Assembly (NCBI GenBank): GCA_002347815.1
Contig: DDXV01000003.1
Span: forward strand, 25,336-89,335
DNA: 64,000 nucleotides
Direction: 5' to 3'
Source: Syntrophaceae bacterium UBA2251
Lineage (GTDB): Bacteria; Desulfobacterota; Syntrophia; Syntrophales; UBA2251
The notes beneath the pieces are model-generated. The model was not told the origin of the DNA and ran no database searches. It was given only the letters and a program-made list of their open reading frames with translations. The translations under genes and the position numbers were made by a program. Shown here piece after piece: positions 6,072 through 56,849 of the stretch; the stretch's first letter is position 1, and each line of letters starts with the position of its first letter.

Positions 6072-6148
6072 GGGGTCGTAGTTAAGCTGGTTATAACGCC
6101 GGCCTGTCACGCCGGAGGGCGAGGGTTCGAGTCCCTTCGGCCCCGCCA
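6072..6148 (+). tRNA. tRNA-Asp (anticodon GUC)
   Basis: 77 nt. Acceptor GGGGTCG/CGGCCCC. Anticodon stem CCGGC/GCCGG with loop CTGTCAC. T-arm GAGGG-TTCGAGT-CCCTT. Discriminator G and CCA. Confidence 0.9.
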
Positions 6149-34698: not shown

Positions 34699-34784
34699 GC
34701 GCGATGCCTGATTTAGTTCAATAATATCCGCAATTAGGATGACGGAATGGTTATCAGAAATCGCCGCTTGCCGCAAGGAATGAT

Positions 34785-34813
34785 TTGACATTCGTTCCTC
34801 CGTGGGTTAAGCA
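34785..34813 (+). promoter_or_regulatory. candidate promoter of purMN
   Basis: TTGACA, 17-nt spacer, TAAGCA, about 58 nt upstream of the purM ATG. Confidence 0.3.
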
Positions 34814-38263: not shown

Positions 38264-38269
38264 GTCTTT

Positions 38270-38294
38270 GCCCGGCGGCATCCGTCCGCCGGGC
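38270..38294. terminator. GC-rich hairpin between convergent rpmB and the exported-protein gene
   Basis: Perfect 9-bp stem GCCCGGCGG/CCGCCGGGC with a 7-nt loop. No U-tract on either strand, so terminator function is uncertain. Confidence 0.4.
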
Positions 38295-38297
38295 CCG

Positions 38298-38717
38298 CTA
38301 ACCCTTCCCGCCGATCGTCATTTTCTTCAAATCCTGGAGCCTGATCTGAAACGTTCCGTAGTCCGTGGCGCCGTAGGCTTTCTGACTTCCGTTCAGAATG
38401 AGCTCCAGGGACGCGCCGTCGCGCAGTTTGACCACCCCGATGAGCTTGCCCTCGGACAAGCGGAAAACCACGGACGCGATCCGGTCGAACCCGATGGTGT
38501 AATTCCCCTCGCCCCGCTTCCCCTGCAGGTAGGTCGCCCCATCGATGCTGACGTTCGCGCACGGCGTGAGCACATCCATCTGATCGATGAAGGACGCCCG
38601 GAATTTCTTCTGGGGTACCGGGATTTTCTCGGGGGAATCGCCACCCGTCCGCGAACCCATTCCCAGGGCCAGCGGCAGCACGAGCAGCACGATCCAAAGG
38701 AGCCTTCTTTTCGACAT
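38298..38717 (-). CDS. exported hypothetical protein
   Basis: 139 aa. Strong SD GGGAGGG. Signal-peptide-like N-terminus MSKRRLLWIVLLVLPLALG. No family recognised. Confidence 0.6.
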   Translation of the reverse strand: MSKRRLLWIVLLVLPLALGMGSRTGGDSPEKIPVPQKKFRASFIDQMDVLTPCANVSIDGATYLQGKRGEGNYTIGFDRIASVVFRLSEGKLIGVVKLRDGASLELILNGSQKAYGATDYGTFQIRLQDLKKMTIGGKG

Positions 38718-38924
38718 ATGTCCCTCCCATCACGTCCCGTTGCCGCGGTCCGAACGCCCCCCCGCGACTTCGGCTTTTGCGTATCACTTCGCTCGCCAAA
38801 TATCAAGATGCAAGAGGAAGCCGTTCGGTTTGCCCGGCGTCCCCATTCTTTCCTTGACACCGGAGGGGACATGAATCATATATCGCGGAACCAAACGGAT
38901 GCCGGACACACATCAGGAGTCCCC

Positions 38925-41422: not shown

Positions 41423-42682
41423 CTACCGCCATTCCCGCTCGTCGACGAGCGGCCGGTCCGTCGCCGCGAGCGTCCCTTGCGGAACCCATTCCAGCCGATC
41501 GACGCCGACCGTACAGATCTCGCGGAAACCGCGCTTGAATTCCTCATCCCCCGCCCAACCGTCGACCGGCGTGCCGGGGGCGCCTTCGACCCTGACGACC
41601 AGCAGATCCCTGTCGCCCTCCCGCCGGACATGGACCCGGAAGGATTTGCCTGAAAACCGCTGTGCGAGGCGCTGGATCTGACTTGGCGCGACGAACATCC
41701 CCCGCACCTTGACCGCCTCCCCGACGCGGCCCGCGATCCCGTCCAACCGGTAAGCCGTTCGTCCGCAGGGGCAAGGCATTTCGATCAGCCGGGAAAGGTC
41801 CCCCGTTCCGAAGCGCATCAGGAAGAAGATGTCGTTGAACCGGGTCACCACGACCTGCCCGAGTTCCCCGGCGGGCAGGCGACGACCGTTTTCGGGATCG
41901 CAGATCTCGACGAGCACTTCCTCGCAGACGTGCCAGCCCGACTTCTCCCGGCATTCATAGGCCACGTCGCCGACCTCGGTGGCGCCGTACATCTGGTAGG
42001 TGTCCAGCCCGTAATCGCGCGTGAACGTCTCCCGGAGCGAGGGCCAGAGGGGTTCGGCGGCGAAGCAGGCCCGCTTCAGACGAAAATCCTTTCTCCAGTC
42101 ATACCCCATCTCCTCCGCCTTCCGGATGATCGCCATGAGAAAGCTGGGAGTTCCCGTATAGGCCGTGATCCCAAGATCCCGGATCAGCTCCACCTGGCTT
42201 TGGGCGCCGGCGGTGCCGGAGGGAACGACCGTCGCGCCCACCCGGCGCAACCCGCCGTGAAACGTCAGTCCGGCGGCGACGAGGTGGTAGGAGAAGGCGT
42301 TCAGAACGCGGTCCGCCTTTCCGATCCCCGCGGCATGATAGGCCCGGGCCCAGAGCGCGTCCGTCTCGGACAGGTGGGGCTCGTAGACCGGCCCGGGCGA
42401 GATGAAGATGCGATCGACGGGCGCGGCGGGGTCGACCAGGCCGCCGTACGGGGGTTCGGACAGCTCCCACTGGATCAGCGTTTCGCGGGAAATGACGGGC
42501 AGGCGCTCCAGGTCCGCGGCGAGCGAAAAATCCGCCGGCTTCAGGCCTGTTTCATCGAGGATCCGGCGCATACGGGACGACGCCCGATAGCCGTCCTCAA
42601 GCATGGCGCGCATCCGGGAGAATTTCCGCGCCCGCCTCGCCTCCGCATCCTCATGCTCCCATGCATCGAACCCGTCTGCCAT
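41423..42682 (-). CDS. phenylacetate-CoA ligase family (PaaK / F390-synthetase-like) adenylate-forming enzyme
   Basis: 419 aa. Overall pattern of the PaaK-like family (LERLPVISRETL, YTGTPSF, YGATEVG, C-terminal small domain). Last gene of the liv-type operon. Confidence 0.8.
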   Translation of the reverse strand: MADGFDAWEHEDAEARRARKFSRMRAMLEDGYRASSRMRRILDETGLKPADFSLAADLERLPVISRETLIQWELSEPPYGGLVDPAAPVDRIFISPGPVYEPHLSETDALWARAYHAAGIGKADRVLNAFSYHLVAAGLTFHGGLRRVGATVVPSGTAGAQSQVELIRDLGITAYTGTPSFLMAIIRKAEEMGYDWRKDFRLKRACFAAEPLWPSLRETFTRDYGLDTYQMYGATEVGDVAYECREKSGWHVCEEVLVEICDPENGRRLPAGELGQVVVTRFNDIFFLMRFGTGDLSRLIEMPCPCGRTAYRLDGIAGRVGEAVKVRGMFVAPSQIQRLAQRFSGKSFRVHVRREGDRDLLVVRVEGAPGTPVDGWAGDEEFKRGFREICTVGVDRLEWVPQGTLAATDRPLVDEREWR

Positions 42683-42721
42683 CCGTCCCTCCTCAGCGTT
42701 GGAGCGCCCCCGGCGCCCCCG

Positions 42722-43522
42722 TCATAACCAGCGCTTCCGCCGGCGATAGGATTTGGGCTGCTGATAGGCGCCGGGCCCGCCGGCGCCCCCCCCACCCAGA
42801 TAGAATTCCTTGACGTCGGGATTGTCCTTCAGCGTCTCCGAGGCGCCCTCCATGACGATTTTGCCGTTTTCCATCACGTATCCATAGTGGGCGATCTCGA
42901 GGGCGATCCGGGCATTCTGTTCCACCAGGATGATGGTGGTCTGCTGCTCCCCGTTGATCCGGGCGATGATGCGGAAGATCTCCTCGACCACGAGGGGCGC
43001 CAGCCCCAGGGAAGGTTCATCGAGCAGCAGGAGCTTCGGATGGGCCATCAAGGCCCGCCCCATGACGAGCATCTGGAGTTCTCCGCCGCTGCAGTAACCG
43101 GCCAGCGCCTTGCGGCGATCCCACAGGACGGGGAAGTAGTGGTACACGAGTTCCAGGTCCTTTCGATAGGGCTTCCCCCAGCGCGTGGCCGTCCCGACGC
43201 GAAGATTCTCTTCGATGGTCAGGTACTTGAAGGGCTGACGCCCCTCGAGCACCTGGATGATCCCCAGACGGGTGATCTGTTCTGGGGACCGATTTTCGAG
43301 GGGATGCCCCTCATACAGGATGGCGCCGTCGGTCACACGGCCGTTCTCGGGCTTGAGCAGCCCCGAGACGGCCTTGAGCGTGGTTGTCTTCCCTGCCCCG
43401 TTGCTGCCCAGGAGCGAGACAATCCGGCGGTTGGGCACCTGGAGCGATACGCCTTTGAGGACCTGAATCACATCGGCGTACACGACGCTGATGTTGTTGA
43501 TTTCGAGAAGCGTGTCTTCCAT
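42722..43522 (-). CDS. livF: branched-chain-amino-acid-type ABC transporter ATP-binding protein (LivF-like)
   Basis: Start at MEDTLLEINNISVVY. Walker A GSNGAGKTT. Signature CSGGELQM. Walker B LLLLDEPS. Confidence 0.92.
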   Translation of the reverse strand: MEDTLLEINNISVVYADVIQVLKGVSLQVPNRRIVSLLGSNGAGKTTTLKAVSGLLKPENGRVTDGAILYEGHPLENRSPEQITRLGIIQVLEGRQPFKYLTIEENLRVGTATRWGKPYRKDLELVYHYFPVLWDRRKALAGYCSGGELQMLVMGRALMAHPKLLLLDEPSLGLAPLVVEEIFRIIARINGEQQTTIILVEQNARIALEIAHYGYVMENGKIVMEGASETLKDNPDVKEFYLGGGGAGGPGAYQQPKSYRRRKRWL

Positions 43523-43532
43523 ATTGCTTCCC

Positions 43533-44603
43533 TCAATAGGAAAAGGGCCAGAGGCGGAAACTGGACCGGATGATCCGCCAGAGCTCCGCCAGGCCGCGGG
43601 GTTCGAAGAGGATGAACAGGACGATCGCGAGTCCGAAGGCAAATTCCCGGAGCGGGGCCATATTGAGGCCGGACTGGGTGATGAACCCGAAGTTCATCAT
43701 CAGGTCGGTGAGCCAGCGGAGTGATTCGTTGAGCACCGTGATGAACACCGCCCCGTAGACGGAGCCTGCGACGCTCCCCAGTCCGCCGATGATCACCATC
43801 GCGATGTATTCGACGGACAGCGACAGATTGAAGGGCTCCGAGGTGACGCTGACCATGTAATAGGCCCACAGGGCGCCGGCCAGTCCGGCGTAGAAAGAGC
43901 TGATGCCGAAGGAGAGGATCTTGTAGCTGAAGATGGGGATGCCCATTCCCTCGGCGGCGCGATCGTTGTCGCGGATGGCGATGAACGCGCGGCCGTAGCG
44001 CGTCCGGATGAGATTGACGGCCATCCAGATCATCAGCGCCAGGACGGCGAAAATGACGTAAAAAAATCGGATGTCGCCCCGCAGGGAGATTCCGAACAGG
44101 GTCGGGGCGGGGACGGTTATTCCCTCCGTCCCGCGCGTGACCCCCTCCCAGTGCACGAGGACGTATTCGATGATGAACTGCCCGGCCAGCGTGGCGATGG
44201 TCAGGTAGAGGCCCTTGAGCCGGCCGGAAGGGATCCCGAAAATCATTCCGACGCCGGCGGTGATGAGGCCGGCCGCGGGGACGCTCAGAAGAAAGGGAAC
44301 GTTGAACGTCGCGGACATCACGGCGGCGGCGTACGCGCCCACACCGAAGAAAGCCCCGTGACCGAGAGAGATCATCCCCGTGTACCCGACCAGGATGTTG
44401 AGTCCGATCGCCGCAATGGCGTAGATGCCGATCATGTTGACGACGTAAAGCAGGTAGGGCGGACTGATGAACGGAACGGCGCAGAAGAGCGCCGCGATCC
44501 CGGCCAGGGACCAGAGCCGGCCGTAATCGGAGCTGAAGATCGCCAGTTCGTCCGCGTACGATTCCTTGTAATTGCCGCAGGGGTGAAGGCGGAGCTTTCT
44601 CAT
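43533..44603 (-). CDS. livM: ABC transporter permease (LivM-like)
   Basis: 356 aa polytopic membrane protein with the LivM-type GMISLGHGAFFGVGAY motif. Confidence 0.92.
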   Translation of the reverse strand: MRKLRLHPCGNYKESYADELAIFSSDYGRLWSLAGIAALFCAVPFISPPYLLYVVNMIGIYAIAAIGLNILVGYTGMISLGHGAFFGVGAYAAAVMSATFNVPFLLSVPAAGLITAGVGMIFGIPSGRLKGLYLTIATLAGQFIIEYVLVHWEGVTRGTEGITVPAPTLFGISLRGDIRFFYVIFAVLALMIWMAVNLIRTRYGRAFIAIRDNDRAAEGMGIPIFSYKILSFGISSFYAGLAGALWAYYMVSVTSEPFNLSLSVEYIAMVIIGGLGSVAGSVYGAVFITVLNESLRWLTDLMMNFGFITQSGLNMAPLREFAFGLAIVLFILFEPRGLAELWRIIRSSFRLWPFSY

Positions 44604-44612
44604 GAATCCTCC

Positions 44613-45491
44613 CTAAACCCTTTCGATTTCGACCAGGCCGAAGAGTCCGTAAGGCCGGACGAGCAGCAGGACGACGAGAACGATATAGGGGACGACGTCC
44701 CGGAGGGAGGGCGAGAGGTATCCCCCCGTGAAGGCCTCGAGGACCCCGATGATCAGTCCGCCGATCACGGCGCCGCTGATGGAGTTGAGTCCCCCGAGGA
44801 TGACCACGGGGAAGACCTTCAGCCCGACGGCGCTGAGGTCATGAACGCTGATCCCGTTCATGAGACCGAGGATGATGCCGCTCATGCCCGCCACCAGGGC
44901 GGCGATGCCCCAGGACAGGGCGAAGACGCGCCGGACATGCACGCCCAGGGACAGGGCGGCCCGCTGGTTGTCGGCAACGGAGCGCATGAAAATGCCCTGC
45001 GCCGAATACTTGAAGAACAGACCGAAGAGGACGAGAAACAGGACGCCGACGAGGATCGCCGCCATATAGACCGGAGGAATGCGGAGCCATCCCGACTGGA
45101 TGTCCATCCAGGCCGGGAGAAAATCCGGCAGGGTTCGCAGGTTCCCCCCCCAGATGAGGAGGAGCAGCCCCCTCAGCATCGCCGCCAGGCCGACCGTGAG
45201 CATGATGACGTAAATGAGCGGTTCGCCGATGAGCGGTCGCAGGAAAAACCGTTCGATCAGAAAACCCAGGACGAAGCACCCCGTGAGCGTCGCGAGAAAG
45301 GCCCACCCGATCGGGAGCTGGACGACCGAATGAAGGGAGAGGAAAACGAAGGCGCCCAGGGCGAGGAGTTCGCCGTGCGCAAAATTGAGCACGCTGGAGG
45401 ACTTGAAGATCATGACGAATCCCATCGCCGACAGCCCGTACAGGAAGCCGACGCTCAGCCCGTTGACCAAAAGTTGAATGAAAAAGTCCAT
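44613..45491 (-). CDS. livH: ABC transporter permease (LivH-like)
   Basis: Start at MDFFIQLLVNGLSVG. Contains LNFAHGE, typical of LivH. Confidence 0.92.
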   Translation of the reverse strand: MDFFIQLLVNGLSVGFLYGLSAMGFVMIFKSSSVLNFAHGELLALGAFVFLSLHSVVQLPIGWAFLATLTGCFVLGFLIERFFLRPLIGEPLIYVIMLTVGLAAMLRGLLLLIWGGNLRTLPDFLPAWMDIQSGWLRIPPVYMAAILVGVLFLVLFGLFFKYSAQGIFMRSVADNQRAALSLGVHVRRVFALSWGIAALVAGMSGIILGLMNGISVHDLSAVGLKVFPVVILGGLNSISGAVIGGLIIGVLEAFTGGYLSPSLRDVVPYIVLVVLLLVRPYGLFGLVEIERV

Positions 45492-45507
45492 AGTCGGTTC
45501 CTTCCGC

Positions 45508-47466
45508 TCACGCCTCGAGGATGCGCACGCTGGTTTCAATGACCCCGACCTGTCCGTCCCGGTATTTCACCTTGCCCTTGACGGGCAGTGTCGTCAGATC
45601 GCCGTACATCGCCTCGATCAGAGGCAGGTAGAGCCCGTAGACGAAGCGGCGGCGGACCTTGCCGGTCCGCGTCAGCTCCTCGTCGTCCGCGTCGAGCAGT
45701 TTATACAGCAGGATGAACTTTCTGATCCGCATCGCGTCGGGGAGCCGTCCGTTCGTCCGGCGGAGCTCTTCCCTGAGCAGGGCGGCCACATCGGCCTGCT
45801 GCGAGAGATCGTTGTAGGTCGTGTAGGGGATCATCCGATCCTCCGCCCAGGCGCCGACGTTGCCGAAGTCGATGTTGACGAGCGCCGTGAGGAAGGGCTT
45901 ACCCTCGCCGAAGACGACGGCTTCCTTGATGTAGGGGCTGAACTTCAGTCGCGTTTCGATGTAATCCGGGGAAAAGGCCTGCCCCTCCTTGTTGCGGATG
46001 ATCTCTTCCCGGCGGCCGATGATCACAAGATGCCCGTCCTCGTCCAGATAGCCGGCGTCCCCGGTTCTGAGCCATCCCTCGCGGAAGGCCGCTTCCGTGG
46101 CGGCGAAGTCCTGATGGTAGCCCATGAAATTGGCATCGCTTTTGACCATCACCTCCTGGTCTTCGCCGATCATGACCTGCGTGTCCGGAAGGGGCTTCCC
46201 CACCGTTTCCGGCTTCACCTCTCCGTCCGGCTGAACCTGGAAAATGCCGCCCGCTTCGGTCAGCCCGTAGCACTGCTTGAGATTGAGTCCCGTGGCACGG
46301 AAAAAACGAATGACGTCCGGGCTGATCGGATGTCCGCCGGTGAAGGCCGAGCGGAGTTGCGAGCAACCCATGCGGTCGAGCAGGGGCTTGAAGGCGATCC
46401 GGTCGGCGATCCGCTTTCGCCAGCGGAGGCTGATCGGGGTCGCCGTTTTCCGTTCCTCCGCCTCCAGGGCCCTTCGCCCGATCCCCTCCGCCCAGGCAAA
46501 CAGGGTTCGCTTCAGCCAGCCCGCGTCGCCCATCCGGACGCGGATGCGTGAGGCCATATCCTCCCAGAACCGGGACGAGGTGATGAGCAGATGGGGACCG
46601 ATTTCGCGGAAATCCTCCAGAAGGGTCTCGGGCGTATTGGCGAAATTCATGGTCATCCCGCTCACGAGAGCCACTCCCATTCCCCACATCTGATCGACGA
46701 TCCAGGCGGGAGGGGACATGGAATACCAGTTTTCGCCCGGCCGGATTCGCAAGGCATCCCGCCATTTTGTCCCCATCGCCAGAAGATTGCCATGGGACAG
46801 CATGGCGATCTTCGGCAGTCCGGTCGTTCCGGATGTCAGGATCATGACCGCCGTCCCGGAGGCCCTTCCCTTTTTCAAAAGCGCCTCGTACTGCTCCGGT
46901 CGCTCCCGCTCCAGCCGCTCGCCACGCGAGATCAGGTCCGCGAAGCTGATGAGCCAGGGCTCTCCCTGATAGGGTCGCATCCCGGTGGGATCTACATAGA
47001 TGACGTGGCGGATATCCGGAAGGCGGTCGCGAACCTCCAGAAGCTTGTCCACCTGCTCCTGGTCCTGGACGATCACGAAACGCGCGGACACGCGCTTCAG
47101 GGCGCCGGCGAGTTCGTCGGCCACGGCCGCGGTAAACAGACACAGAGAGATCGCCCCCGCCGCATGCGTCGCGAGCTCTCCGAACAGCCATTCAGGGCCG
47201 TTGTCGAGAATGAGGCCGTTGGTTTCGCCGGGGCGCTGTCCGAGGGAGACAAGCCCCAGCGCGCACCGCCTGACATAGGATTCATACTCCGTCCAGGTCA
47301 AGGCTTGCCAGATGCCATAGGCCTTTTCCCGAATCGCGATCCGGCTGCCGCCCAGGGTCGACGCCTGCCGGGCGAGCATTTTGGGCAGGGTATCGACGCC
47401 GGCATCGGACGGAGGTGAACCCTCCGGTCGCGGCGGGTGGGAAAGCGGCACCGGTTCCATCCTCAT
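45508..47466 (-). CDS. AMP-forming acyl-CoA synthetase (long-chain-fatty-acid-CoA-ligase-like)
   Basis: 652 aa. AMP-binding motif ILTSGTTGLPK. Also YGLTEAGG and TGDAGYLDEDGHLVIIGR. The ATG overlaps the livG stop (ATGA). Inserted between livG and livH. Confidence 0.9.
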   Translation of the reverse strand: MRMEPVPLSHPPRPEGSPPSDAGVDTLPKMLARQASTLGGSRIAIREKAYGIWQALTWTEYESYVRRCALGLVSLGQRPGETNGLILDNGPEWLFGELATHAAGAISLCLFTAAVADELAGALKRVSARFVIVQDQEQVDKLLEVRDRLPDIRHVIYVDPTGMRPYQGEPWLISFADLISRGERLERERPEQYEALLKKGRASGTAVMILTSGTTGLPKIAMLSHGNLLAMGTKWRDALRIRPGENWYSMSPPAWIVDQMWGMGVALVSGMTMNFANTPETLLEDFREIGPHLLITSSRFWEDMASRIRVRMGDAGWLKRTLFAWAEGIGRRALEAEERKTATPISLRWRKRIADRIAFKPLLDRMGCSQLRSAFTGGHPISPDVIRFFRATGLNLKQCYGLTEAGGIFQVQPDGEVKPETVGKPLPDTQVMIGEDQEVMVKSDANFMGYHQDFAATEAAFREGWLRTGDAGYLDEDGHLVIIGRREEIIRNKEGQAFSPDYIETRLKFSPYIKEAVVFGEGKPFLTALVNIDFGNVGAWAEDRMIPYTTYNDLSQQADVAALLREELRRTNGRLPDAMRIRKFILLYKLLDADDEELTRTGKVRRRFVYGLYLPLIEAMYGDLTTLPVKGKVKYRDGQVGVIETSVRILEA

Positions 47467-48287
47467 GACGCGTCTCCCCCCAGATAGGCCTTGATCACTT
47501 CCGGATGGCGCTGGATGTCCTCCGACGTTCCCTCGGCCAGTTTCTGACCGAAGTTGAGCACGATGATCTTCTGGGCGATCCCCATGACGATGGACATGTC
47601 GTGCTCGACCAGGAGCATCGTCTGACCCCAGGCCCGGTGAAGTTCGAGCAGAAAGCGGACCATGTCCTCCTTCTCCTCAAGATTCATGCCGGCAAACGGT
47701 TCGTCGAGGACCAGAAGCCGGGGTTCGAGGGCGAGGGCGCGGCCCAATTCCACCCGCTTCATCATCCCGTACGGCAGGGATCCGACGGGGGTGTTTCGGA
47801 TCGCCTGCATTTCGAGAAAGTCGATCACCTCCTCGAGGATCTCGCGCTGTCGGACCTCGTCGCGTCGGACCCCGGAGGTGAAAAATGCGGCCGGCATCAG
47901 GCGATACCGGCAGTGCATGTGCCGGGCCAGCATCATGTTGGCCAGGACGGTCATGCCGGGAAAGAGCTCGATGTTCTGAAAGGTGCGGCCAATCCCGATC
48001 CCCGTCAGCAGGTGCGCCGGCAGGTGGGTCGTGTCGCGCCCGTTGAAGCGGATCCTTCCGCGCTGGGCCCGGTAAAATCCGGTGATGCAGTTCATCAGGC
48101 TGGTCTTCCCGGCGCCGTTCGGACCGATGACGGCGACAAGTTCGCCGGTATCCACGCGCAGTCCGACGTCGTTGAGCGCCGTGACGCCGCCGAACTGAAG
48201 CGTGAGGCCGCTCACGTCCAGCTCGGCCCGGCGCGAAGCAGGATCACGCCGGGCGAAGATGCGGGGTTGACCCCGGCAGGCTTTCAT
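47463..48287 (-). CDS. livG: ABC transporter ATP-binding protein (LivG-like)
   Basis: Start placed at MKACRG (48287), just downstream of the livK stop. Walker A GPNGAGKTS. Walker B LLVLDEPFAG. Confidence 0.92.
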   Translation of the reverse strand: MKACRGQPRIFARRDPASRRAELDVSGLTLQFGGVTALNDVGLRVDTGELVAVIGPNGAGKTSLMNCITGFYRAQRGRIRFNGRDTTHLPAHLLTGIGIGRTFQNIELFPGMTVLANMMLARHMHCRYRLMPAAFFTSGVRRDEVRQREILEEVIDFLEMQAIRNTPVGSLPYGMMKRVELGRALALEPRLLVLDEPFAGMNLEEKEDMVRFLLELHRAWGQTMLLVEHDMSIVMGIAQKIIVLNFGQKLAEGTSEDIQRHPEVIKAYLGGDAS

Positions 48288-48298
48288 CGCGGACGTCC

Positions 48299-49510
48299 CT
48301 ATTTCTTCAGCATCCGGATCTTTTCCTTCCCCGGAACGTAGAAATTCGTCAGGGGGACGAACTCCCCGTTTTCCCGGACTCGAACCATTCTGGCCGTGAA
48401 GGAGGCGCCATGATCCGCTGCGGTATAGGTAACGGAAGGCACCAGGCCGCCGAAGTCCTCGTTGCGGAAACCCTCCATGGCCCGATTGATGGTCGCCGCA
48501 TCGATCCGGCCGTATTTTTCCTTTGCCCGGATGAACGCCCGCTCCATGATCATGCCCACCACAACGCCTTCCCAATAGGAGGCGTCGAATTCCTTGACGG
48601 TCCCGTACCGCTTCCAAAGATCCTGCAGGATCTTGATCCCCTTGGACCGGTCGGACGGAACCCCGCCGGGGAACTGAATCACCAGCCGATCCCGGATCAG
48701 CCCTTTGGCCATCGGAAAGAAATCCGGGTCGGTGGAGGTCCAGGTTCCCAGAAACAGAGGTTCATAGGCGGCCCGGTCGGCATTTTTCAGGGCGGTGACG
48801 ACCGTGGCCGGCAGGACCTGCATGAAAACGTAATCCACGTTGTTTTTCTTCAGCCTCAGCATTTCCGTGGTCAGATCCATTGTCTTGGGCGGAAACTCCT
48901 CGACGGCGACGAGATTGATGCCGTTTTTGGCCGCGTACTCGCGCGTCGGCTGATGAATCGAACGCCCGTAGGCATTGTTGTAGGTGAGCAGCCCCACCCG
49001 CGGGGCCTCTTTCCCCTTGTGAACGGCGCGGATGTATTCCAGGACCGCCTGGCAATCCATGCGGTAGCTGCCGAAGGGGAGATACATGTAACTGACGGGA
49101 GGCTGCAAAATCTCCCAGCTGGTCGAGAAGTTGATGGTGGGAATGCGGTACTGCTGGACAATGGGCTTCGCGGCCAGGCCTTCGCCCGCCCCCCACGTCG
49201 CCATCATGTCCACGCGCTCCTGTACCGCGAATTTGCGGACGGCGGCCACGGCCTCCGGCACCTTGTAGCCCGTATCGACGAGGAGCATCTCGATCTGGCG
49301 TCCGCCGACCCCTTTTCGGACTTCGTTGACGTAACGGAAATAGTCCTTCATCCCCCTGGCGTGATACTGGCCGAAGGTCGAGGCGGGGCCGGTCATGTTG
49401 ATGGCCGCACCGACCCGGATGTTCTGCGCCGCCGTCGTCTCGCCGGCGCCCGTCGCCAGCGCCAGCAGCATCCCCGTGATCATCATCAATCCTTTACCGA
49501 TCGCTTTCAT
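48299..49510 (-). CDS. periplasmic substrate-binding protein, LivK/LivJ (type I PBP) family
   Basis: 403 aa. Signal peptide MKAIGKGLMMITGMLLALATGAG. Remainder is Leu/Ile/Val-binding-protein-like. SD GGAAGGAGGG. Confidence 0.9.
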   Translation of the reverse strand: MKAIGKGLMMITGMLLALATGAGETTAAQNIRVGAAINMTGPASTFGQYHARGMKDYFRYVNEVRKGVGGRQIEMLLVDTGYKVPEAVAAVRKFAVQERVDMMATWGAGEGLAAKPIVQQYRIPTINFSTSWEILQPPVSYMYLPFGSYRMDCQAVLEYIRAVHKGKEAPRVGLLTYNNAYGRSIHQPTREYAAKNGINLVAVEEFPPKTMDLTTEMLRLKKNNVDYVFMQVLPATVVTALKNADRAAYEPLFLGTWTSTDPDFFPMAKGLIRDRLVIQFPGGVPSDRSKGIKILQDLWKRYGTVKEFDASYWEGVVVGMIMERAFIRAKEKYGRIDAATINRAMEGFRNEDFGGLVPSVTYTAADHGASFTARMVRVRENGEFVPLTNFYVPGKEKIRMLKK

Positions 49511-49527
49511 ATTCCCTCCTTCCGGAT

Positions 49528-49554
49528 AAAAAAAACCGTGGCAGTCACCACGGC
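49528..49554 (-). terminator. intrinsic terminator T2 (second of a tandem pair) in the livK leader
   Basis: Minus strand: (G)CCGUGG-UGACUG-CCACGG followed by U8. Ends 17 nt before the livK ATG. Confidence 0.7.
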
Positions 49555-49594
49555 AAAAAAAAGCCGTGGGCGGTCAGATGGTCCGCCCACGGCT
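49555..49594 (-). terminator. intrinsic terminator T1 in the livK leader
   Basis: Minus strand: 12-bp perfect stem AGCCGUGGGCGG/CCGCCCACGGCU with a 9-nt loop, followed by U8. Confidence 0.75.
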
Positions 49595-49623
49595 CAAGAT
49601 CCCTCGATGTGGTCATGAGCCTA

Positions 49624-49695
49624 TCAGGCAGACCTCCGCCTAAAGCTAAAAAAGACGAAAAACGGTTTATCTTTCCCGAACGCTGCGGCCTTCAT
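49624..49695 (-). CDS. candidate Phe-rich leader peptide (23 aa: MKAAAFGKDKPFFVFFSFRRRSA)
   Basis: ATG 49695 lies 5 nt after SD GAGGGAGAG. 6 of 23 codons are Phe, and 5 of the 7 codons 12-18. Stop TGA at 49626-49624 lies 2 nt before a segment able to pair with the 5' arm of T1. Confidence 0.6.
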   Translation of the reverse strand: MKAAAFGKDKPFFVFFSFRRRSA

Positions 49696-49726
49696 GGCGG
49701 CTCTCCCTCTAAAATGCGGTGACATG

Positions 49727-49755
49727 TCACTAGAGGATCGACGATCCTTTGTCAA
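49727..49755 (-). promoter_or_regulatory. candidate promoter of the leader/liv operon, with flanking palindromes
   Basis: Minus strand: TTGACA (49755-49750), 17-nt spacer, TAGTGA (49732-49727). The spacer is itself the palindrome AGGATCG-N-CGATCCT (49734-49748). The -10/+1 region overlaps the perfect palindrome GTGACATGTCAC (49719-49730). Confidence 0.35.
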
Positions 49756-49775: not shown

Positions 49776-51149
49776 TCACGATGCTTTATTGGACAGCTTG
49801 TCGATCCGGTAATGCAGGGAGTCCAGCGTGATATTCAGGAGGTCAGCCGCCATTTTCCTGGATCCGGAGGTTTTCTCCAGCGCCGCATCGATATAGGCCT
49901 TTTCCACGCGGGCCAGCTCCCGGTTGAGATGGATGCCCTCCGGGGGGATATCGATTCCGGCGCCTGGCGCCTCGAAGCGGGTGGCGCCGTTCGACAAAAC
50001 GAGATTTTCCGGGAGGATGATGCTCGAGGCCTCCAGGGCAATCGAGCGCTCGATGATGTTTTCCAGTTCGCGGATGTTGCCGGGGAAGGGATAATCGACG
50101 AGGAGCTCCAGGGCGTAGGTGGAGATATTCTGGATCTTCTTCCCGAATTGCCGGGAGTACTTCTCGATGAAGTGACGCGTCAGGATCGGGATGTCGTCCT
50201 TGCGCTCACGCAGCGGCGGGATGTGGATCGGAATCACGTTCAGTCGGTAATAGAGATCCTCCCGGAACCGTCCTTCGTGGACCCGCTGGTGGAGATCCTT
50301 GTTGGTCGCGGAGATGATGCGAACATCGACCCGGATGTCCTCCGTGCCGCCGACGCGGCGAAAGGCCTTTTCCTGCGTCACCCTCAACAGCTTCACCTGG
50401 AGCAGCGGGGGCAGATCCGCGATTTCATCCAGAAAGATCGTGCCGCCGCGTGCGACTTCGAACAGTCCGGGTTTATCGGCATGGGCGCCGGTGAACGCGC
50501 CCTTCATGTAACCGAACAGTTCGCTCTCGAGAAGGCTTTCCGGGATGCCGCCGCAGTTGATCACCATGAACGGCATGTCCTTCCGCGAGCTGTTCTCGTG
50601 GATCGCCAGCGCGACCAGTTCCTTGCCGGTTCCGCTCTCGCCCAGGATCAGGACGTTCACGGGCGTATCGGCAATCTTGTTGATCACGGCGTAGATCTTG
50701 ACCATCTCCGGACTGCTTCCGATCATGGCGCCGAAGCTGACGGCATTGGTCACCTCCTGACGGAACAGGGCGTCCTCGCTGCATTCGCGCCTGGCATCCA
50801 GCGCCCGCTCGATGATCTTCGTCAAGTCCTCGATCCGGAAATCCTTTTCGATATAGTCGAAGGCGCCCTCCTTCATGGCCGCAACGGCGGTCTCACCGGA
50901 GGCGTAAGCGGTGATCAGGATGACGACCGTCTCCGGTGCGATTTTCTTGGCCCGCTGCAGAAACTCCAGCCCGTCCATACGGGGCATCTTCAAATCGGTG
51001 ATGATGAGGTCGAAGGTTTCCTTCCGCAGGCCCTGCATCGCCTTGTAAGGATCCCCGTATGCCTGGACATCGTACCCTTCCCGCGTCAGCATGATCACCA
51101 GCATGTCCCGGATGTTCTGGTCGTCGTCTAAAACAAGAATCTTCGGCAT
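49776..51149 (-). CDS. sigma54-dependent response regulator (NtrC family)
   Basis: 457 aa. Receiver domain (ILVLDDD...DLIITDLKMPRMDG). AAA+ domain with GESGTGKE and GAFTGA. C-terminal Fis-type HTH. Confidence 0.93.
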   Translation of the reverse strand: MPKILVLDDDQNIRDMLVIMLTREGYDVQAYGDPYKAMQGLRKETFDLIITDLKMPRMDGLEFLQRAKKIAPETVVILITAYASGETAVAAMKEGAFDYIEKDFRIEDLTKIIERALDARRECSEDALFRQEVTNAVSFGAMIGSSPEMVKIYAVINKIADTPVNVLILGESGTGKELVALAIHENSSRKDMPFMVINCGGIPESLLESELFGYMKGAFTGAHADKPGLFEVARGGTIFLDEIADLPPLLQVKLLRVTQEKAFRRVGGTEDIRVDVRIISATNKDLHQRVHEGRFREDLYYRLNVIPIHIPPLRERKDDIPILTRHFIEKYSRQFGKKIQNISTYALELLVDYPFPGNIRELENIIERSIALEASSIILPENLVLSNGATRFEAPGAGIDIPPEGIHLNRELARVEKAYIDAALEKTSGSRKMAADLLNITLDSLHYRIDKLSNKAS

Positions 51150-51163
51150 CGCGTTCCTCTCTG

Positions 51164-52882
51164 CTAATCACTCCCGAGATCGCCGCACGGAAGGTAAATA
51201 TGGAAGGCGGTCCCCTGCCGGGGCCGGCTCTTCACCTCGATCCGTCCGCCATGTCCCGTCACGACCCGCTGGACGATGGCCAGCCCCAAACCGGTGCCCC
51301 GCTCCTTGGTCGTGTAAAAGGGCGTGAAGATCCTGTCGTGCAGGTGTTCTTCGATCCCTTCGCCCTCGTCGGCGACGATCACCTCCAGGTGCCCCCTGTC
51401 CCCTCCGGCGAGGGGGTGACGGACAATCTCGATCCGCAGATCTCCGCCTGCCGGCATCGCCTGAACGGCGTTCAGGATGAGATTCCAGATCACCTGGCGG
51501 ATCTCCGTCGCACTGGCCATGAGCGCGTCGTCGGGCGCCACCTTCAGGGACAACCGAATCCGATCATGCCAATCCGGCAGAAAGCGGACGGATTCCACCA
51601 CATCCCGAATCAGGACGTCAAGGGCGATTCTGTCGCGCCTCACGGCGGGTGCGCGGGAGAGCAGCAGAAAATCCTTGAGAAATCCCTCAAGCTGTTCCTT
51701 GCCCCGCAAGATAATCTGCATGAGTTTTTCGTCCTCGTCCTTCAGGGCGAGATCCCGTTTCAGGATCTGAATGGATCCGGTAATCGAAGCGAGAGGATTG
51801 CGGATTTCATGGGCGAGGCCGGCGGCCATCTCCCCGACCAGGGCCAGGCGCCTGCTCTCCTCGACGGCGCGCTGCATCGCCCTGACTTCCGTCAGATCCT
51901 GAAAGATCAGGATATCGCCGATGCGCTGTCCACCCGGATCGTTCAGCGTCGAGACCGAGCAGCCGATGAGGAGGCTCTGACCCCCCTTCGACCTGAAGGA
52001 AAACTGCGGTCGCCGTTCCGACACGCCTGAATCGGCGTCCGCGGGCCGGTCGAGGATTTCCAGGAAATCGGGAAAGAGCTGCCCGAGGGGTCTGTTGACG
52101 ACCTCCCGCGCAAGAAAGCCGGTGATCCGTTCCGCGCCGCGGTTGAAGGATTTGACGAGTCCGTTCACGTCCATCGTCAGGATTCCGGCGTCCACGGAAT
52201 CGATGATGCTCTGATGGAGGATATCGAGCTGATTGAAGGCGCTCTCCGTCTCTGCCAGGAGTGTTTGCGCCTTCCTTTCCTGCTCGACCACGAAACTGGC
52301 GAGGAAAACGATGATGAAGAAGGACGCGGAATAGATGAGAATCCGTGTAAAGACGTACCCGGCGGAGAAGGATTGGTCGACATACGCCATCGGATACAGC
52401 GGCGCGAGAAGCCCGAAATATTCGGAAATGAGGAGCAGTCCGTACAGGACGCTGCAGACCGAGGCGGTAATCAGGCCGCCCCGTCGCATCAGAAAGAGGA
52501 CCGAATAGATGATGACGAGCGGATAAAAGGCGGCATGGACGCTACGGATCCCTCCCGTGATGTAAACCAGGGCGGTGATCAGCAGCACGTCGGCCATGCT
52601 CTGAATGTAGACGTTGAGAATCGGTGCCCGGGTCAGCTTGAGCAGCAGGATGAAACCCATGGTGAGCAGGTAGGTCAGGATGACGATCGCGTAGAGGGAC
52701 GTCCTGGATATATCCGGCAGGAGGGCGGCGTCCCGGACATCGATCAGCGCGACGAACCCGAGCAGGAAGGTGACGATGAACAGCCGCCAGACCATGAGCC
52801 AGCGGATGCGCTTCACCAGTCTTTCCTCAACGGCCCGCGGCGCTCCCGGGACGGTTTTAGGTTGATGATCCGGAGGTTTCAC
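51164..52882 (-). CDS. sensor histidine kinase with polytopic membrane N-domain, PAS, HisKA and HATPase domains
   Basis: Six or so TM helices. PAS-like segment. H-box AAGLAHEIRNPL. N/G boxes (NLILNAVQAM, GTGLGLAIV). The longest ORF reaches 53002 but would overlap divergent comEC, so GTG 52882 behind GAAGGGA is preferred. Start is uncertain. Confidence 0.88.
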   Translation of the reverse strand: MKPPDHQPKTVPGAPRAVEERLVKRIRWLMVWRLFIVTFLLGFVALIDVRDAALLPDISRTSLYAIVILTYLLTMGFILLLKLTRAPILNVYIQSMADVLLITALVYITGGIRSVHAAFYPLVIIYSVLFLMRRGGLITASVCSVLYGLLLISEYFGLLAPLYPMAYVDQSFSAGYVFTRILIYSASFFIIVFLASFVVEQERKAQTLLAETESAFNQLDILHQSIIDSVDAGILTMDVNGLVKSFNRGAERITGFLAREVVNRPLGQLFPDFLEILDRPADADSGVSERRPQFSFRSKGGQSLLIGCSVSTLNDPGGQRIGDILIFQDLTEVRAMQRAVEESRRLALVGEMAAGLAHEIRNPLASITGSIQILKRDLALKDEDEKLMQIILRGKEQLEGFLKDFLLLSRAPAVRRDRIALDVLIRDVVESVRFLPDWHDRIRLSLKVAPDDALMASATEIRQVIWNLILNAVQAMPAGGDLRIEIVRHPLAGGDRGHLEVIVADEGEGIEEHLHDRIFTPFYTTKERGTGLGLAIVQRVVTGHGGRIEVKSRPRQGTAFHIYLPCGDLGSD

Positions 52883-52936
52883 GATATATCCCTTCGAGGA
52901 ATCGGCCTCCCGTGTGAAGCGCGCAGCAGGTGACCC

Positions 52937-55486
52937 ATGCAAAGGCCTCTCATTCCGCTTTGTCTGGCCCTTTCGGCCGGAATCGTCGCCGGGCATTATC
53001 ACCCCGTCCCGGCACCGGCGATTCCCCTGACCGTCCTGATCGCCCTGTTGGGATTGCTGCTGGCGTTCGGCCGGCGCCCTGCCGGCCGCTCCATCGTCCC
53101 CGGGCTCCTGGCCGTCTCGTTTTTCACGGTCGGCATCCTGAACGCGAATCTGAATCTCGCGTTACCCGTTTCACCTGCCCCTATAGCAAACTCTGCCGGT
53201 CCTGAAAAGGAAACGATTGAGGCAATGATCTGTGACGCCCCCCGGATCTCCCCCGACGGGACGGATCTGGTCCTCTGCGCCCTTTCGATCCTCCGGCCGG
53301 GCATCCGGCGGGGGGTTACGGGCCGAATGCTTCTGTCCGTCGGCGTCCCCGACCGCCGTTTCCGTTACGGGGACATCGTCCGCTTCCAGGCGGTCGTCCG
53401 CCCGCCACGAAATTTCCGGAATCCGGGCGGGTTCGATTACGTCCGTTATCTGAGCGACCAGGGGATCCGGGTGCGGGCCTACCTTCCCGATTCGCGCGGG
53501 CTGGTCGTCATGCGGCGGGACCAGGGACAGCCGCTCAAGACGGCCCTGGAGACCTTCCGCGCCCGTCTGAAATCCTTCATCTATGCCCACGCCGCCTCAC
53601 CGGAGGCCGAAATCGTGCAGGCCTTGATTCTGGGGGATCAAAAAGAAATCCCCGAGCCGGTCCGCGAGGCCTTCAATCGCACCGGCACATCCCATATTCT
53701 CGCCATCTCCGGTTTCAACATCGGCATCGTCGCGCTGGTTTTCGTCTTTCTTGTCCGGATAGCCCTGAAAGCCTTTCCGAATGCGCTGCTTTGGGTGGAC
53801 GCCCGAAAGGCCTCCATCCTGCTGGCGGTCATTCCCGTCGTGATCTTCACGCTCGTCGCCGGCGCCGGGATATCCGTGGTTCGCGCCGCCCTGATGGTGG
53901 TCGTCTTCATGATCGCCACCCTTCTCGACAAGGAGCGGGATCTGTACAATGCGCTGGCGCTTGCGGCCTTCACCATTTTGATGATCCGCCCTTCCTCGCT
54001 CTACGACATCTCCTTTCAGTTATCCTTTTCCGCCGTCCTCGCCATACTGTATCTCACGCCCCGGTTGATCTCCCGGGTGCCGAAACCGTCCCCGCCCGTG
54101 AGCCCGGAGGCAACCATCGCGGATCGGGCCGGACGCTGGGTGCATTCCCGCCTGTACGCCGCTGCCCTGTTCGCCGCCGCAACCGTCGGCGCGACCTTGG
54201 GAACCCTTCCCCTCGTTCTCTACCATTTTTACCGCATCTCCCTCGTGACGCTGCCCGCCAATCTTCTCGCCACCCCGATCCTGGGAATCCTCTCGATTCC
54301 GCTCAGCACGGCGCTGATCTTTCTGGTGCCGATCGCTCCCGCCCTCTCCGCCTGGATCGTGAAGATAGACGCCCTTTTGGTCCGTCTGTCCGTTACCCTG
54401 ATCGAGTTCTGCGCCTCCTTTCCATATGCCTCGGTGTACCTGTTCCGGCCGAGCCTCGTCGAGATTCTTCTCTACTACGCCTGTCTGGTCCTGGCCGCCT
54501 CGATCCTTCCCGCCTCACGTGAACCGCGTGCATTCCCCTCCCCGCCTCCCGTGCACCCTTTTACCCGGTCCCGGCGCGCCGTTGTCCTGGTGACGCTGCT
54601 GATCGTGTGGGCGGCCGTCTCCGTCTCCCTCAACCGGCAACCCCTCCGCTCCAATCTTCTGCGTCTGACCGCGATCGATGTCGGTCAGGGCAGTGCCACC
54701 CTGGTACGATTCCCCTTCGGCAAGACGATGCTGGTCGACGGCGGGGGGTTCCACGATCAGAGCTTCGATGTCGGAAAGTTCGTCACCGCACCCTATCTCT
54801 GGCATGAACGCGTGCGAACCCTCGATGTCTGCGTCCTCACCCACCCGCATCATGACCACCTGGCCGGTCTCCTCTTCATCGTACAGCATGTTCCCGTAGG
54901 CGAGGTCTGGGTCGGCGACGTCCCCGCTTCCGATCTTTCCTCGCCGCTTTACCTGGATTTTCTCCGGATCGTCCGTGAGCGGAACATCCCCCTCCGGCGG
55001 GTTTCCGCCGAGACGCCCCCCCGTACGATCAACGGCGTTACCCTCTCCATCCTGAACCCGACTTCGGTCTCTGATTCCACCGGGGCGCGGGACGACGAGG
55101 AGACGAACGACCACTCGCTGGTGATGAAAATGACCTACGGCAAGAACGCGTTCCTCCTGCCGGCGGACATCTCCGGTCCCGCCGAGGCTGGGCTCCTGAG
55201 CCGCCCCACCGATCTCGCGAGCGACGTCCTGTTCGTCCCCCATCATGGCGGCCGACATTCGAGCACGGAGGCCTTTCTGCTGCGGGTGAGGCCGCGACGG
55301 GCCGTCGTCAGTTGCGGCTGGGAAAATCGCTTCGGAAACCCGCATCCGGTCATCCTGGAAAGGTACGCCCGCCTGGGGATCCGCCTCTATCGCACGGATC
55401 TGGATGGCGCGGTGGAATTCTCCTCCAACGGACGCCGCGTCAAAACGCACGCCCCCCTTTCCGGTCGAGATCCCTCACGGCATTGA
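52937..55486 (+). CDS. comEC: DNA internalization-related competence protein ComEC/Rec2
   Basis: 849 aa. DUF4131-like N-terminus. Polytopic competence domain ([15 protein letters not shown]). C-terminal metallo-beta-lactamase domain ([12 protein letters not shown]). Confidence 0.9.
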
Positions 55487-55568
55487 TTTTGATTGCCTTT
55501 TCAAACCCGATGTGTTAGTGAACCGCGTTCCAAAAGGGCGCCTCCAAGGCGGCCACAGGGAGAGAATC

Positions 55569-56849
55569 ATGGATACGATTCAGGCGGTTCGGGGCTTCAA
55601 GGACATTCTCCCCCCGGAGACCGGCAAATGGCAATTCATCGAGCGGCTGGCCCGGGAGGTTTTCACCGATTTCGGCTTTCTGGAGATCCGCGTCCCCATC
55701 CTGGAAAAAACGGAACTTTTCCGGCGCGGCATCGGGGAAGCCACCGACATTGTTGAAAAGGAGATGTACACGTTTCTCGATCGCGGCGACGAATACCTGA
55801 CCCTGAGGCCGGAGGCGACCGCGTCGATTCTCCGCGCCTATCTCGAGCACACCCTCTACGCGGCCGATCCGATAGCCCGCCTTTTCACCATCGGGCCCAT
55901 GTTCCGACGGGAGCGTCCTCAGAAGGGGCGCCTTCGCCAGTTTCATCAATTGGATGCGGAGATTCTCGGAATCGACGACCCCCGGGTGGATGCGGAGTTG
56001 ATCGTCATGCTCATGCATTTTCTCGTCCGCGCCGGCCTGCCGGACATTCATCTTGAAATCAATTCCCTGGGATGTCCGGACTGCCGCCCCGCGTTCCGAG
56101 ACCGGCTCATCACCTTTCTCGCCGGTAAACAGACGGCCCTGTGCGAAGACTGTCGTCGAAGGATGCTCTCGAACCCGCTCCGGATCTTCGATTGCAAACT
56201 CGAGACCTGCCGCGAGCAGCTTCTGTCGGCGCCGAAGATCCTCGATTTCCTTTGTCCCCCGTGCGACACCCACTTCCAGACATTCAGGAAATACTTGAGC
56301 ATTGCGGATATAACACCTTCAATCAACGCCGGAATGGTTCGAGGTCTAGATTATTATACACGTACGGCCTTCGAGGTCACGACGGGCGCTCTCGGCGCCC
56401 AGAACGCCGTCCTCGGCGGGGGCCGCTACAACGGTCTGGCCCGCGAACTCGGCGGCCCGGACATCCCCGGGATCGGCTTCGCCATCGGCTTGGAGCGGCT
56501 CCTGTCCCTGATCGAGCCGAACGATGCGCAACTCAGCCCCGTCCCGCACCTGTTTGTCGCCTTTTTGGGGGATCAGGCCGGGCGCGTCGCATTCGATCTC
56601 GCCAATGGTCTGCGGAAGGTCGGCATCCGCACCGAGGTCGATTACGCCGGGCGCAGCCTCAAAAGCCAGATGCGGCGCGCGAACAAGCTGAACTGCCCCT
56701 ATACCCTGATTTTGGGGGATCGCGAGATCGCCGCGGGCGAGGTGCAGTGGCGCGACATGCGGAGCAGTCTTCAGGAAACCCTTCCCCTGGACGGCCTTTT
56801 CGAGACCATCCGCGGAAAATTGCTTGAGAAAGGTCAAACACTTGTCTGA
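55569..56849 (+). CDS. hisS: histidine--tRNA ligase
   Basis: Start at [15 protein letters not shown]. Class II motifs ([24 protein letters not shown]). Confidence 0.95.

Follow-up and report, generated by a model that had tools for sequence, protein, structure and literature searches.

A predicted phenylalanine-responsive leader-peptide attenuator ahead of a Liv-type importer and CoA-ligase operon in Syntrophales

Gene context and leader region

The DNA analyzed here, referred to as the window, is a 64-kb stretch (64,000 nucleotides) of contig DDXV01000003.1 from a Syntrophales bacterium (Thermodesulfobacteriota). Its minus strand carries an operon for a Liv-type ATP-binding cassette (ABC) importer and two coenzyme A (CoA) ligases, and the subject of this report is the leader region ahead of the first gene, livK, which contains a Phe-rich open reading frame (ORF) and two intrinsic terminator hairpins. 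A histidine kinase and a σ54 response regulator are encoded directly upstream, and the operon end is bounded by a convergent RecJ gene (Table 1). NCBIfam assigns the two ligases only generic FadD-like and PaaK-like labels, with scores under the equivalog cut-offs; the best solved relatives of the PaaK-like protein are phenylacetate-CoA ligases (2y27, E = 6e-45). The closest locus in the genome scan is 98% identical in protein sequence. Across orthologous loci the order of the importer and ligase genes is kept, and the kinase/regulator pair is syntenic in most, not all, of them.

A sequence-only reading of the window had placed a promoter, a Shine–Dalgarno (SD) sequence, a 23-codon leader ORF and two terminators, T1 and T2, between the regulator and livK. 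Reading positions 49900-49400 recovered every one of these elements in its assigned place on the minus strand, exact to the base. The promoter is σ70-like, and the leader transcript is predicted to start near 49720. The same arrangement, CTTGAC(A/T)-N16-18-TATAnn with a T-rich upstream tract, is kept before the leader in essentially all related loci. The adjacent σ54 regulator prompted a look for a σ54 promoter, but the 450-nt regions ahead of livK in 77 loci contain no −24/−12 motif, and the idea was dropped in favor of the conserved σ70-like promoter.

Two perfect palindromes overlap the promoter region. One, AGGATCG-T-CGATCCT (49734-49748, minus strand), lies in the −35/−10 spacer and is shared with loci L001 and L002; the other, GTGACATGTCAC (49719-49730, minus strand), overlaps the −10 element and the predicted start site. 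An additional repressor might use them as operators; in more distant loci they are not kept. The kinase and σ54 regulator stand directly upstream in most genomes, yet the promoter is σ70-like.

The leader contains six Phe codons, five of them among codons 12–18. As the sequence-only reading had noticed, it prefers TTT (TTT 4 : TTC 2), against a preference for TTC in nine neighboring genes (TTT 45 : TTC 123). Seven-codon stretches with at least five Phe occur twice in the whole window, read in six frames, and the leader is one of them; 20 shuffles of the window yielded none. The other dense stretch, FDEFFFF at ~33918 (minus strand), lies inside a 763-aa ORF (32500-34791) and is presumably a hydrophobic protein segment.

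Table 1. Positions of the leader elements, the operon and other features in the window
Feature	Positions	Strand	Basis or remark
σ70-type promoter: −35 TTGACA 49755-49750, 17-nt spacer, −10 TAGTGA 49732-49727	49727..49755	−	sequence
Leader SD GAGGGAGAG, 5 nt before ATG 49695	49701..49709	−	sequence
Leader ORF, 23 codons + UGA (49626-49624): MKAAAFGKDKPFFVFFSFRRRSA	49624..49695	−	sequence
Regulatory Phe run, codons 12-18, FFVFFSF; TTT TTC GTC TTT TTT AGC TTT	49642..49662	−	sequence
Local 'region 1:2' hairpin AGGCGG (49641-49636):CUGCCU (49631-49626)	49626..49641	−	folding
Segment A, antiterminator 5′ strand: GGUCUGCCU (49634-49626) + GGCUCA (49621-49616)	49616..49634	−	holds leader UGA
Segment B: UGAGCC-GU-GGGCGGACC; antiterminator 3′ strand, also T1 5′ arm	49580..49596	−	sequence/comparison
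Terminator T1: AGCCGUGGGCGG 49594-49583, 9-nt loop, CCGCCCACGGCU (segment C) 49573-49562, U8 49562-49555	49555..49594	−	
Terminator T2: GCCGUGG(U) (segment D, 49554-49547), loop, (G)CCACGG(U) (segment E; CCACGG 49541-49536), U8 49535-49528	49528..49554	−	
livK SD GGAAGGAGGG	49523-49514	−	sequence
First regulated gene: Liv-type periplasmic binding protein (livK; Peripla_BP_6, 403 aa), ATG 49510	48299..49523 including SD	−	Pfam
Rest of operon: LivG-like ATPase, 652-aa FadD-like AMP-binding ligase, LivH, LivM, LivF, 419-aa PaaK-like ligase	41423..48298	−	Pfam, NCBIfam
σ54-regulator stop	49776	−	sequence
Upstream pair: PAS histidine kinase + NtrC-type σ54 response regulator	49776-53002	−	Pfam/NCBIfam
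Phosphofructokinase	36653-37966	+	neighbor, no evident attenuator link
RecJ	38268-40673	+	neighbor, no evident attenuator link
ComEC-like competence protein with metallo-beta-lactamase domain	52937-55486	+	neighbor, no evident attenuator link
Histidyl-tRNA synthetase	55404-56849	+	neighbor, no evident attenuator link
Three tRNA genes	3-85, 5908-5980, 6072-6145	+	Rfam

Mutually exclusive helices in the leader RNA

The leader RNA can form an antiterminator of 15 bp in total between segments A and B. Its main helix is the 9-bp pairing GGUCUGCCU (49634-49626):GGGCGGACC (49588-49580), and an inner helix joins GGCUCA (49621-49616) to its complement UGAGCC (49596-49591). The sequence-only reading had recognized the inner helix and missed the main one. 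It had also started the antiterminator 5′ strand after the leader stop; the UGA in fact starts 8 nt after the first base of A, so that the codon lies inside this strand. Since A:B takes up the whole T1 5′ arm, antiterminator and T1 are mutually exclusive. The energies in the window are −31.3 kcal/mol for A:B, −27.2 for T1 (B:C), −14.3 for C:D and −12.6 for T2 (D:E). An antiterminator too weak to compete had been the worry raised with the first description, and the order proved the reverse. A scan with a terminator consensus flags T2, the U8 of which ends 17 nt ahead of the livK ATG, and misses T1 only for its 9-nt loop. Overall, the 231-nt leader RNA is more stable than 200 of 200 dinucleotide shuffles (z = −3.5). 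No second copy of the core was found in the window or in any related locus.

The unconstrained minimum free energy (MFE) fold of the whole leader was set aside, because in it the SD region pairs with the T1 U-run, which is uninformative on a co-transcriptional choice. The choice of fold was judged instead from segment energies and from folds in which a ribosome footprint was masked, reaching from 15 nt ahead of the A-site codon to 12 nt past it. In these models ribosome position selects the fold. With the ribosome on the stop codon, T1 forms with 12 bp and the antiterminator with 0 bp; with a stall at F15 or F16, the antiterminator forms with 15 bp and T1 with 0 bp. With no ribosome, or with masks at F12, F13 or F18, the local AGGCGG:CUGCCU hairpin sequesters A and a truncated T1 stays. 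The switch between stall and stop folds anticipated from the sequence was thus reproduced at the stop and at two Phe positions, and failed at the other three. The AGGCGG:CUGCCU hairpin appears to be the counterpart of trp-leader 'region 1'. Roughly half of the other loci have CAGGCAG in its place, located ~41 nt ahead of A and immediately 5′ of the Phe run; stems of this type with at least 7 bp are found in 64% of loci and in 24% of shuffles.

Conservation among Syntrophales orthologues

Relatives of the binding protein number in the thousands. A genome scan with this protein gave 80 loci from Syntrophales/Syntrophaceae/Smithellaceae-type metagenome-assembled genomes, 67–98% identical to the window protein, and the 74 distinct upstream regions among them were aligned (alignment A2). 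Promoter, Phe leader and RNA core are present in all 74. With the conserved promoter as 5′ limit, every region has a leader ORF that starts with ATG or GTG and comprises 21–51 codons, 4–9 of them Phe. The Phe-rich mini-ORF sits ~110–200 nt before the start codon in nearly every case, and SD-like purine tracts stand ahead of most of the leader ATGs. Phe positions vary between TTT and TTC only (376 : 77 family-wide), while the codons in between vary freely (Ala, Ser, Gly, Tyr, Val). This pattern indicates selection on the codons and not on a U-rich RNA tract.

The RNA core is similarly constrained. Two motifs hardly vary in 76 of 77 loci, GGUCUGCC of segment A, where the leader ORF ends, and CCGUGGGCAGACC of segment B; GGTCTGCC is found with at most one mismatch in 76 of 77. 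Throughout the family A pairs with the 3′ half of B, extended by the inner helix GCUCA(U):(A)UGAGC, and B pairs, as the T1 5′ arm, with segment C (GCCCACGGC), after which comes a U-run. In the 74-sequence alignment the antiterminator is paired in 83% of cells, compared with 30–43% in slid controls, and T1 in 92%, compared with 29–51%. Seven antiterminator pairs have changed on both sides, and the observed score was matched by 0 of 500 shuffles; compensatory changes are seen in L042 (GGTCCGCC/GGGCGGACC) and L050 (GGTCTACC/GGGTAGACC). Among the 49 loci with two terminators, the antiterminator (median −28.1 kcal/mol) is more stable than T1 (median −21.3 kcal/mol) in all but one (48/49). Both the F-run mini-ORF and the complementarity of the arms, first described from a single sequence, are thus conserved in orthologues. 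Taken together, comparison of the sequences establishes the parts of the switch, their mutual exclusivity and the codon-level conservation of the Phe run.

The leader stop lies inside strand A in 73 of the 74 loci, 19 nt past the first A base in 66 of them and 8 nt past it in the window lineage, which places a terminating ribosome on the antiterminator 5′ strand. In 56 of 76 loci the stop used is UGA, mostly with C as the next base. UGA-C is a slow termination context and would prolong occupancy of the antiterminator strand by the ribosome. A conserved peptide tail, 'EVCL..S', was also considered at the end of the leader and was ruled out, because in the window, L001 and L002 these nucleotides, GAGGUCUGCCUG, are translated in another frame (RRRSA*). 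Before other types of operon, among the matches listed, the leader stop is found at varied offsets from A+8 to A+27. The varied offsets and the change of frame indicate that the RNA is conserved and that the peptide tail is a by-product.

Tandem terminators and a probable C:D relay

T2 is present in 49 loci, including the window, and about two dozen Smithella-like loci have T1 only. Segment D (GCCGUGG) is near-invariant in the 49 loci and can pair with C over at least five, mostly seven, contiguous positions. E, with which it forms the T2 hairpin, often shows bulges or wobbles and is less conserved than D. In an alignment of these regions (A3), C:D is paired in 96.7% of cells, with 19–51% in slid controls, and D:E in 88.9%. 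C:D and T2 have similar energies in the 49 loci (medians −14.7 and −14.3 kcal/mol), so that a relay in which C, freed by the antiterminator, captures D would depend on co-transcriptional order, C:D forming first. Two arguments support such a relay. Left unregulated, a U8 terminator only 17 nt from the gene would shut the operon off, and in L103, L142, L170, L188 and L187 the T1 hairpin lacks a U-run, leaving T2 as the sole possible terminator. We lean towards a C:D relay that couples the first switch to T2. The complementarity from T1 to T2 pointed out in the sequence-only reading is conserved, and its use as a relay is likely rather than proven.

The leader ORF might act in another way, through Rho-dependent polarity, mRNA stability, or translational coupling and re-initiation, with the hairpins serving as constitutive partial terminators. 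In its favor, no more than 17 nt separate the end of T2 from the livK ATG, and re-initiation has been proposed for leader ORFs (PMC4833913). Against it, the overlap between antiterminator and terminator arm is precise and has been kept through compensatory changes, the position of the stop within the antiterminator strand is the same in 66 of 74 loci, and two strong, unregulated U8 terminators between a conserved promoter and the operon would silence the latter. We regard this alternative as very improbable.

Single-terminator loci (L014, L032, L034, L037, L043, L059, L067, L070, L079 and other Smithella-like loci) carry GCCGU or GCCAU directly after the U9 tract, often within a small GCCA-loop-UGGC hairpin that has no U-run. 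This motif may be what is left of segment D, or it may have a function of its own.

A family of cores with other leaders and genes

A metagenome scan with the pattern GGTCTGCC-N25-50-CCGTGGGCAGACC gave at least 120 loci (L081-L200). The pattern demanded exact A and B, and the apparent invariance of the core in these loci is partly due to ascertainment. About half of the metagenome loci listed have the same binding-protein gene downstream. In the remaining loci listed, the same core and terminators precede different genes, as identified with Pfam (for example L094, L086, L090, L136 and L107), and the aromatic codons of the leader change with the gene (Table 2). Of the ligase loci, L197, which has no terminator, seems to be a chance match, and L198 yielded no leader call.

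Table 2. Phe (F), Tyr (Y) and Trp (W) counts over the 14 codons that precede segment A, by type of downstream gene, among the matches listed
Downstream gene	Loci	F	Y	W	Leader
Window-type binding protein	62	375	18	0	
Second Liv-type binding protein, 23–25% identical	8	3	32	0	MKPQRFRRHCYYGYGYLRRSARR
CM-PDT-ACT pheA, then aroE, aroA, aroC	5	24	11	0	
DeoC/LacD aldolase + DHQS-II (ADH-synthase route)	13	37	51	9	
DAHP synthase I-beta	2	10	3	4	...SFWFSFWYFF...
DAHP synthase I-alpha (counts from two loci with a called ATG leader)	6	8	6	0	Y/F-rich
516-aa acyl-CoA ligase	5	16	2	0	...FFSFFCFF...
LivH-like permease (L187)	1				MKGHVIYQAWWWCVVVCPP, QAWWWC

Leaders with Tyr codons only (such as YYGYGY and YYYSYIY) stand before the operon of the second Liv-type binding protein in L085, L121, L125, L126, L134, L144 and L180. 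In L144 this operon comprises the binding protein, LivHMGF and, at its end, a PaaK-like ligase. Together with the Trp-coded leader of L187, this suggests three aromatic-specific Liv-type importers, coded for Phe, Tyr and Trp. That the leader codons match the downstream pathway argues more strongly than anything else for sensing of charged tRNA through translation, and it points to Phe as the specificity of the window element. From these comparisons we conclude that the window attenuator appears to be one member of a modular family of aromatic attenuators.

The family bears on two further explanations. The first is that a trans-acting factor (a TRAP- or PyrR-like protein, a small RNA or a small ligand) binds core A–E, senses aromatics and chooses between terminator and antiterminator instead of, or besides, the ribosome. 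The core is almost identical before at least eight unrelated types of gene among the matches listed, which is unlike the classical leader attenuators of different operons; to our knowledge, the E. coli trpL, pheL, hisL and thrL leaders share no sequence with one another. A histidine kinase and a σ54 response regulator are, moreover, syntenic in most genomes. On the other hand, the conserved bases lie almost all in mutually exclusive helices, where two partners per base would slow divergence, and there are no aptamer-like conserved nucleotides in junctions or loops. The exact match to A and B that the metagenome search required also accounts for part of the invariance. Finally, leader codons track the amino acid of the downstream gene (F, Y, W and mixtures), which a common factor would not explain. 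A factor of this kind, in place of the ribosome or besides it, is improbable.

The second explanation is that T1 and T2 merely end the upstream σ54-regulator gene, the Phe mini-ORF being a chance product of a T-rich spacer. The hairpins do lie downstream of the regulator gene and on the same strand. However, a conserved promoter separates the regulator stop (49776) from the leader, and the same geometry occurs in loci that have no upstream regulator and before entirely different genes. The ORF is present in 74 of 74 loci with Phe codons that vary synonymously only, and shuffles of the window yield no comparable Phe runs. The sequence-only reading had itself named this outcome as fatal to its proposal; the comparative data contradict it, and we rule it out, leaving it hardly any probability.

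Proposed mechanism

We propose that the element is very probably a ribosome-mediated leader-peptide transcription attenuator that responds to Phe through charged tRNA-Phe. Transcription would begin at the conserved σ70-type promoter, and a ribosome would translate the 23-codon leader. When Phe-tRNA is plentiful, the ribosome would reach the UGA inside A and cover this segment, so that B:C could form T1 and D:E could form T2, and transcription would stop before livK. When Phe-tRNA is scarce, the ribosome would stall in the FFVFFSF run just upstream of A and melt the AGGCGG:CUGCCU hairpin. A, once freed, would pair with B in the 15-bp antiterminator, and the freed C would most likely pair with D and block T2 as well. 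RNA polymerase could then enter the operon for the Liv-type ABC importer, the acyl-CoA ligase and the PaaK-like ligase. The element has the sequence-level features of its class, namely a leader ORF, a codon cluster, an intrinsic terminator, an overlapping antiterminator and, computationally, the stop and stall geometry. Control of intrinsic termination by a Phe leader ahead of an importer/CoA-ligase operon, as first put forward from the sequence, is upheld by the 74 of 74 loci and by the family of matching leaders.

Several observations weigh against this mechanism. The unconstrained MFE of the window retains a truncated, 8-bp T1. Masks at F12, F13 and F18 give no antiterminator and only those at F15 and F16 do, which may reflect a narrow effective stall window or else a footprint model that is too crude. 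No covariation was seen for C:D on alignment A3, where both strands are nearly invariant, and T2 wins equilibrium folds of the C-to-E region in 34 of the 49 loci. The near-identity of the core across operons is not demanded by a purely ribosome-driven switch, and an extra factor could contribute. In addition, we infer the response to Phe from codon content alone.

Role of the operon

Since an attenuator of this type switches genes on when its amino acid is short, the operon should supply Phe and not degrade it. The core is common to the livK-type operon, to pheA and to the first enzymes of the aromatic pathway, and the PaaK-like enzyme also occurs in the Tyr-coded counterpart. We infer that the operon imports Phe or phenylacetate-type aryl acids, the latter being more consistent with the ligases. 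By analogy with other systems, aryl acids would be taken up, activated to the CoA ester and reductively carboxylated to phenylpyruvate, which would then yield Phe. Salvage of aryl acids in place of import of Phe itself is a tentative assignment, and direct Phe uptake is the simpler alternative.

A precedent is found in Methanococcus maripaludis, where a passage of PMC4162585, citing Porat et al., describes conversion of aryl acids to aromatic amino acids through indolepyruvate oxidoreductase. This route (aryl acid to aryl-acetyl-CoA to aryl-pyruvate to amino acid) offers a rationale for a ligase and an importer induced by Phe starvation. It serves as an analogy only; no indolepyruvate oxidoreductase gene was found next to the window operon. 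Neither was one found elsewhere in the window or under a window-type attenuator in the sample examined, which speaks against salvage. For the AlphaFold model of the binding protein (pLDDT 86.6), the nearest solved neighbor in a Foldseek search of the PDB is a valine-bound binding protein (3lkb, 25% identity). Its other neighbors bind fatty acids, aromatic acids and phenylpyruvate; at 15–25% identity overall, the comparison does not discriminate the ligand.

A broader picture, which we consider possible and rather doubtful, is that of one modular six-segment switch in Syntrophales, re-programmed by leader codons, that governs both the de novo aromatic pathway and three Liv-type importers as aryl-acid salvage routes. 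As part of this same doubtful picture, the de novo branch would comprise the DAHP synthases, the ADH-synthase/DHQS-II operon and pheA. PaaK-like ligases are present in at least two of the three importer operons, those coded for Phe and Tyr; the Trp-coded contig ends too early. If the picture held, phenylacetate, 4-hydroxyphenylacetate and indoleacetate from fermenting neighbors would be turned into CoA esters and reductively carboxylated to give Phe, Tyr and Trp, a cross-feeding pathway in syntrophic communities exposed by its regulation.

Relation to known attenuators

Searches with Rfam at gathering thresholds, over the whole window and nine related loci, returned tRNAs only and no attenuator, T-box or riboswitch family. 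At E ≤ 10 the leader region gave no Phe_leader, T-box or riboswitch match and only sub-threshold, terminator-like small-RNA matches (ncS54, 28 bits against a gathering threshold of 43). A riboswitch or T-box is a poor fit, as no model matches and the conserved bases lie in helices and not in unpaired junctions.

The E. coli pheL and pheM leader peptides carry runs of Phe codons. As in pheL-pheA and pheM-pheST, the element described here combines a short leader ORF with a Phe run, an intrinsic terminator, an overlapping antiterminator, a UGA stop and, in the folding models, a fold set by the ribosome. Unlike pheL and pheM, which belong to Gammaproteobacteria, it occurs in Syntrophales of the Thermodesulfobacteriota, and no similarity to them was found in sequence or by covariance model. 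It controls an ABC importer and CoA ligases rather than pheA or pheST, although related cores precede pheA on other contigs. Most members have two tandem terminators, and the core is common to Tyr-, Trp- and mixed-codon leaders of other operons.

The his leader of Salmonella and E. coli also uses a chain of helices, A:B, C:D and E:F against B:C and D:E, in which only the last hairpin is a terminator. The element probably shares with it a chain of more than two alternating, exclusive helices, which would relay ribosome position to a distal terminator. It differs in that both B:C and D:E carry U-runs in most loci, and in that some relatives have T1 only (the Smithella-like loci) or T2 only (L103 and L187).

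Reportedly, Vitreschak et al. (2004) predicted His attenuators before transporter genes, and amino-acid transporters under T-box control exist in Firmicutes. An attenuator before a transporter is thus not new in itself, and the likeness extends to an uptake system that would be on when the cognate tRNA is poorly charged. Here, in contrast, the system is a Liv-type ABC importer with two embedded adenylate-forming ligases, the amino acid sensed is predicted to be Phe, and parallel Tyr- and Trp-coded versions serve paralogous Liv-type systems. A full-text literature search found no description of an aromatic attenuator in Syntrophales or deltaproteobacteria, nor of a Phe leader before a transporter/ligase operon, in line with the expectation from the sequence-only reading that the arrangement is undescribed. 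The 53 pheL genes covered by PMC3082878 all belong to the gamma subdivision. Apparent novelties are the lineage, the operon under control, a modular core combined with F, Y, W or mixed leaders, and the probable relay between tandem terminators.

Attenuation by Phe-codon leaders would thereby extend from Gammaproteobacteria to Syntrophales, largely uncultured key players in methanogenic degradation. One RNA scaffold appears to be reused with different codon programs across an aromatic regulon, as opposed to the unrelated leaders of E. coli, which makes it easy to model and to scan for. The regulation would mark a very common, uncharacterized type of operon (Liv-type ABC importer with FadD-like and PaaK-like ligases) as serving Phe acquisition, and predicts Tyr- and Trp-specific paralogues of it. 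The two-terminator relay would be a compact natural way to tighten an attenuator, with possible use in RNA engineering.

Gene start in the operon

The LivG-like ORF (47463-48617, minus strand) runs ~320 nt into the binding-protein gene, and its ABC domain begins at residue 148. In most relatives the match begins after the livK stop, so the true start of the LivG-like gene is probably near 48290.

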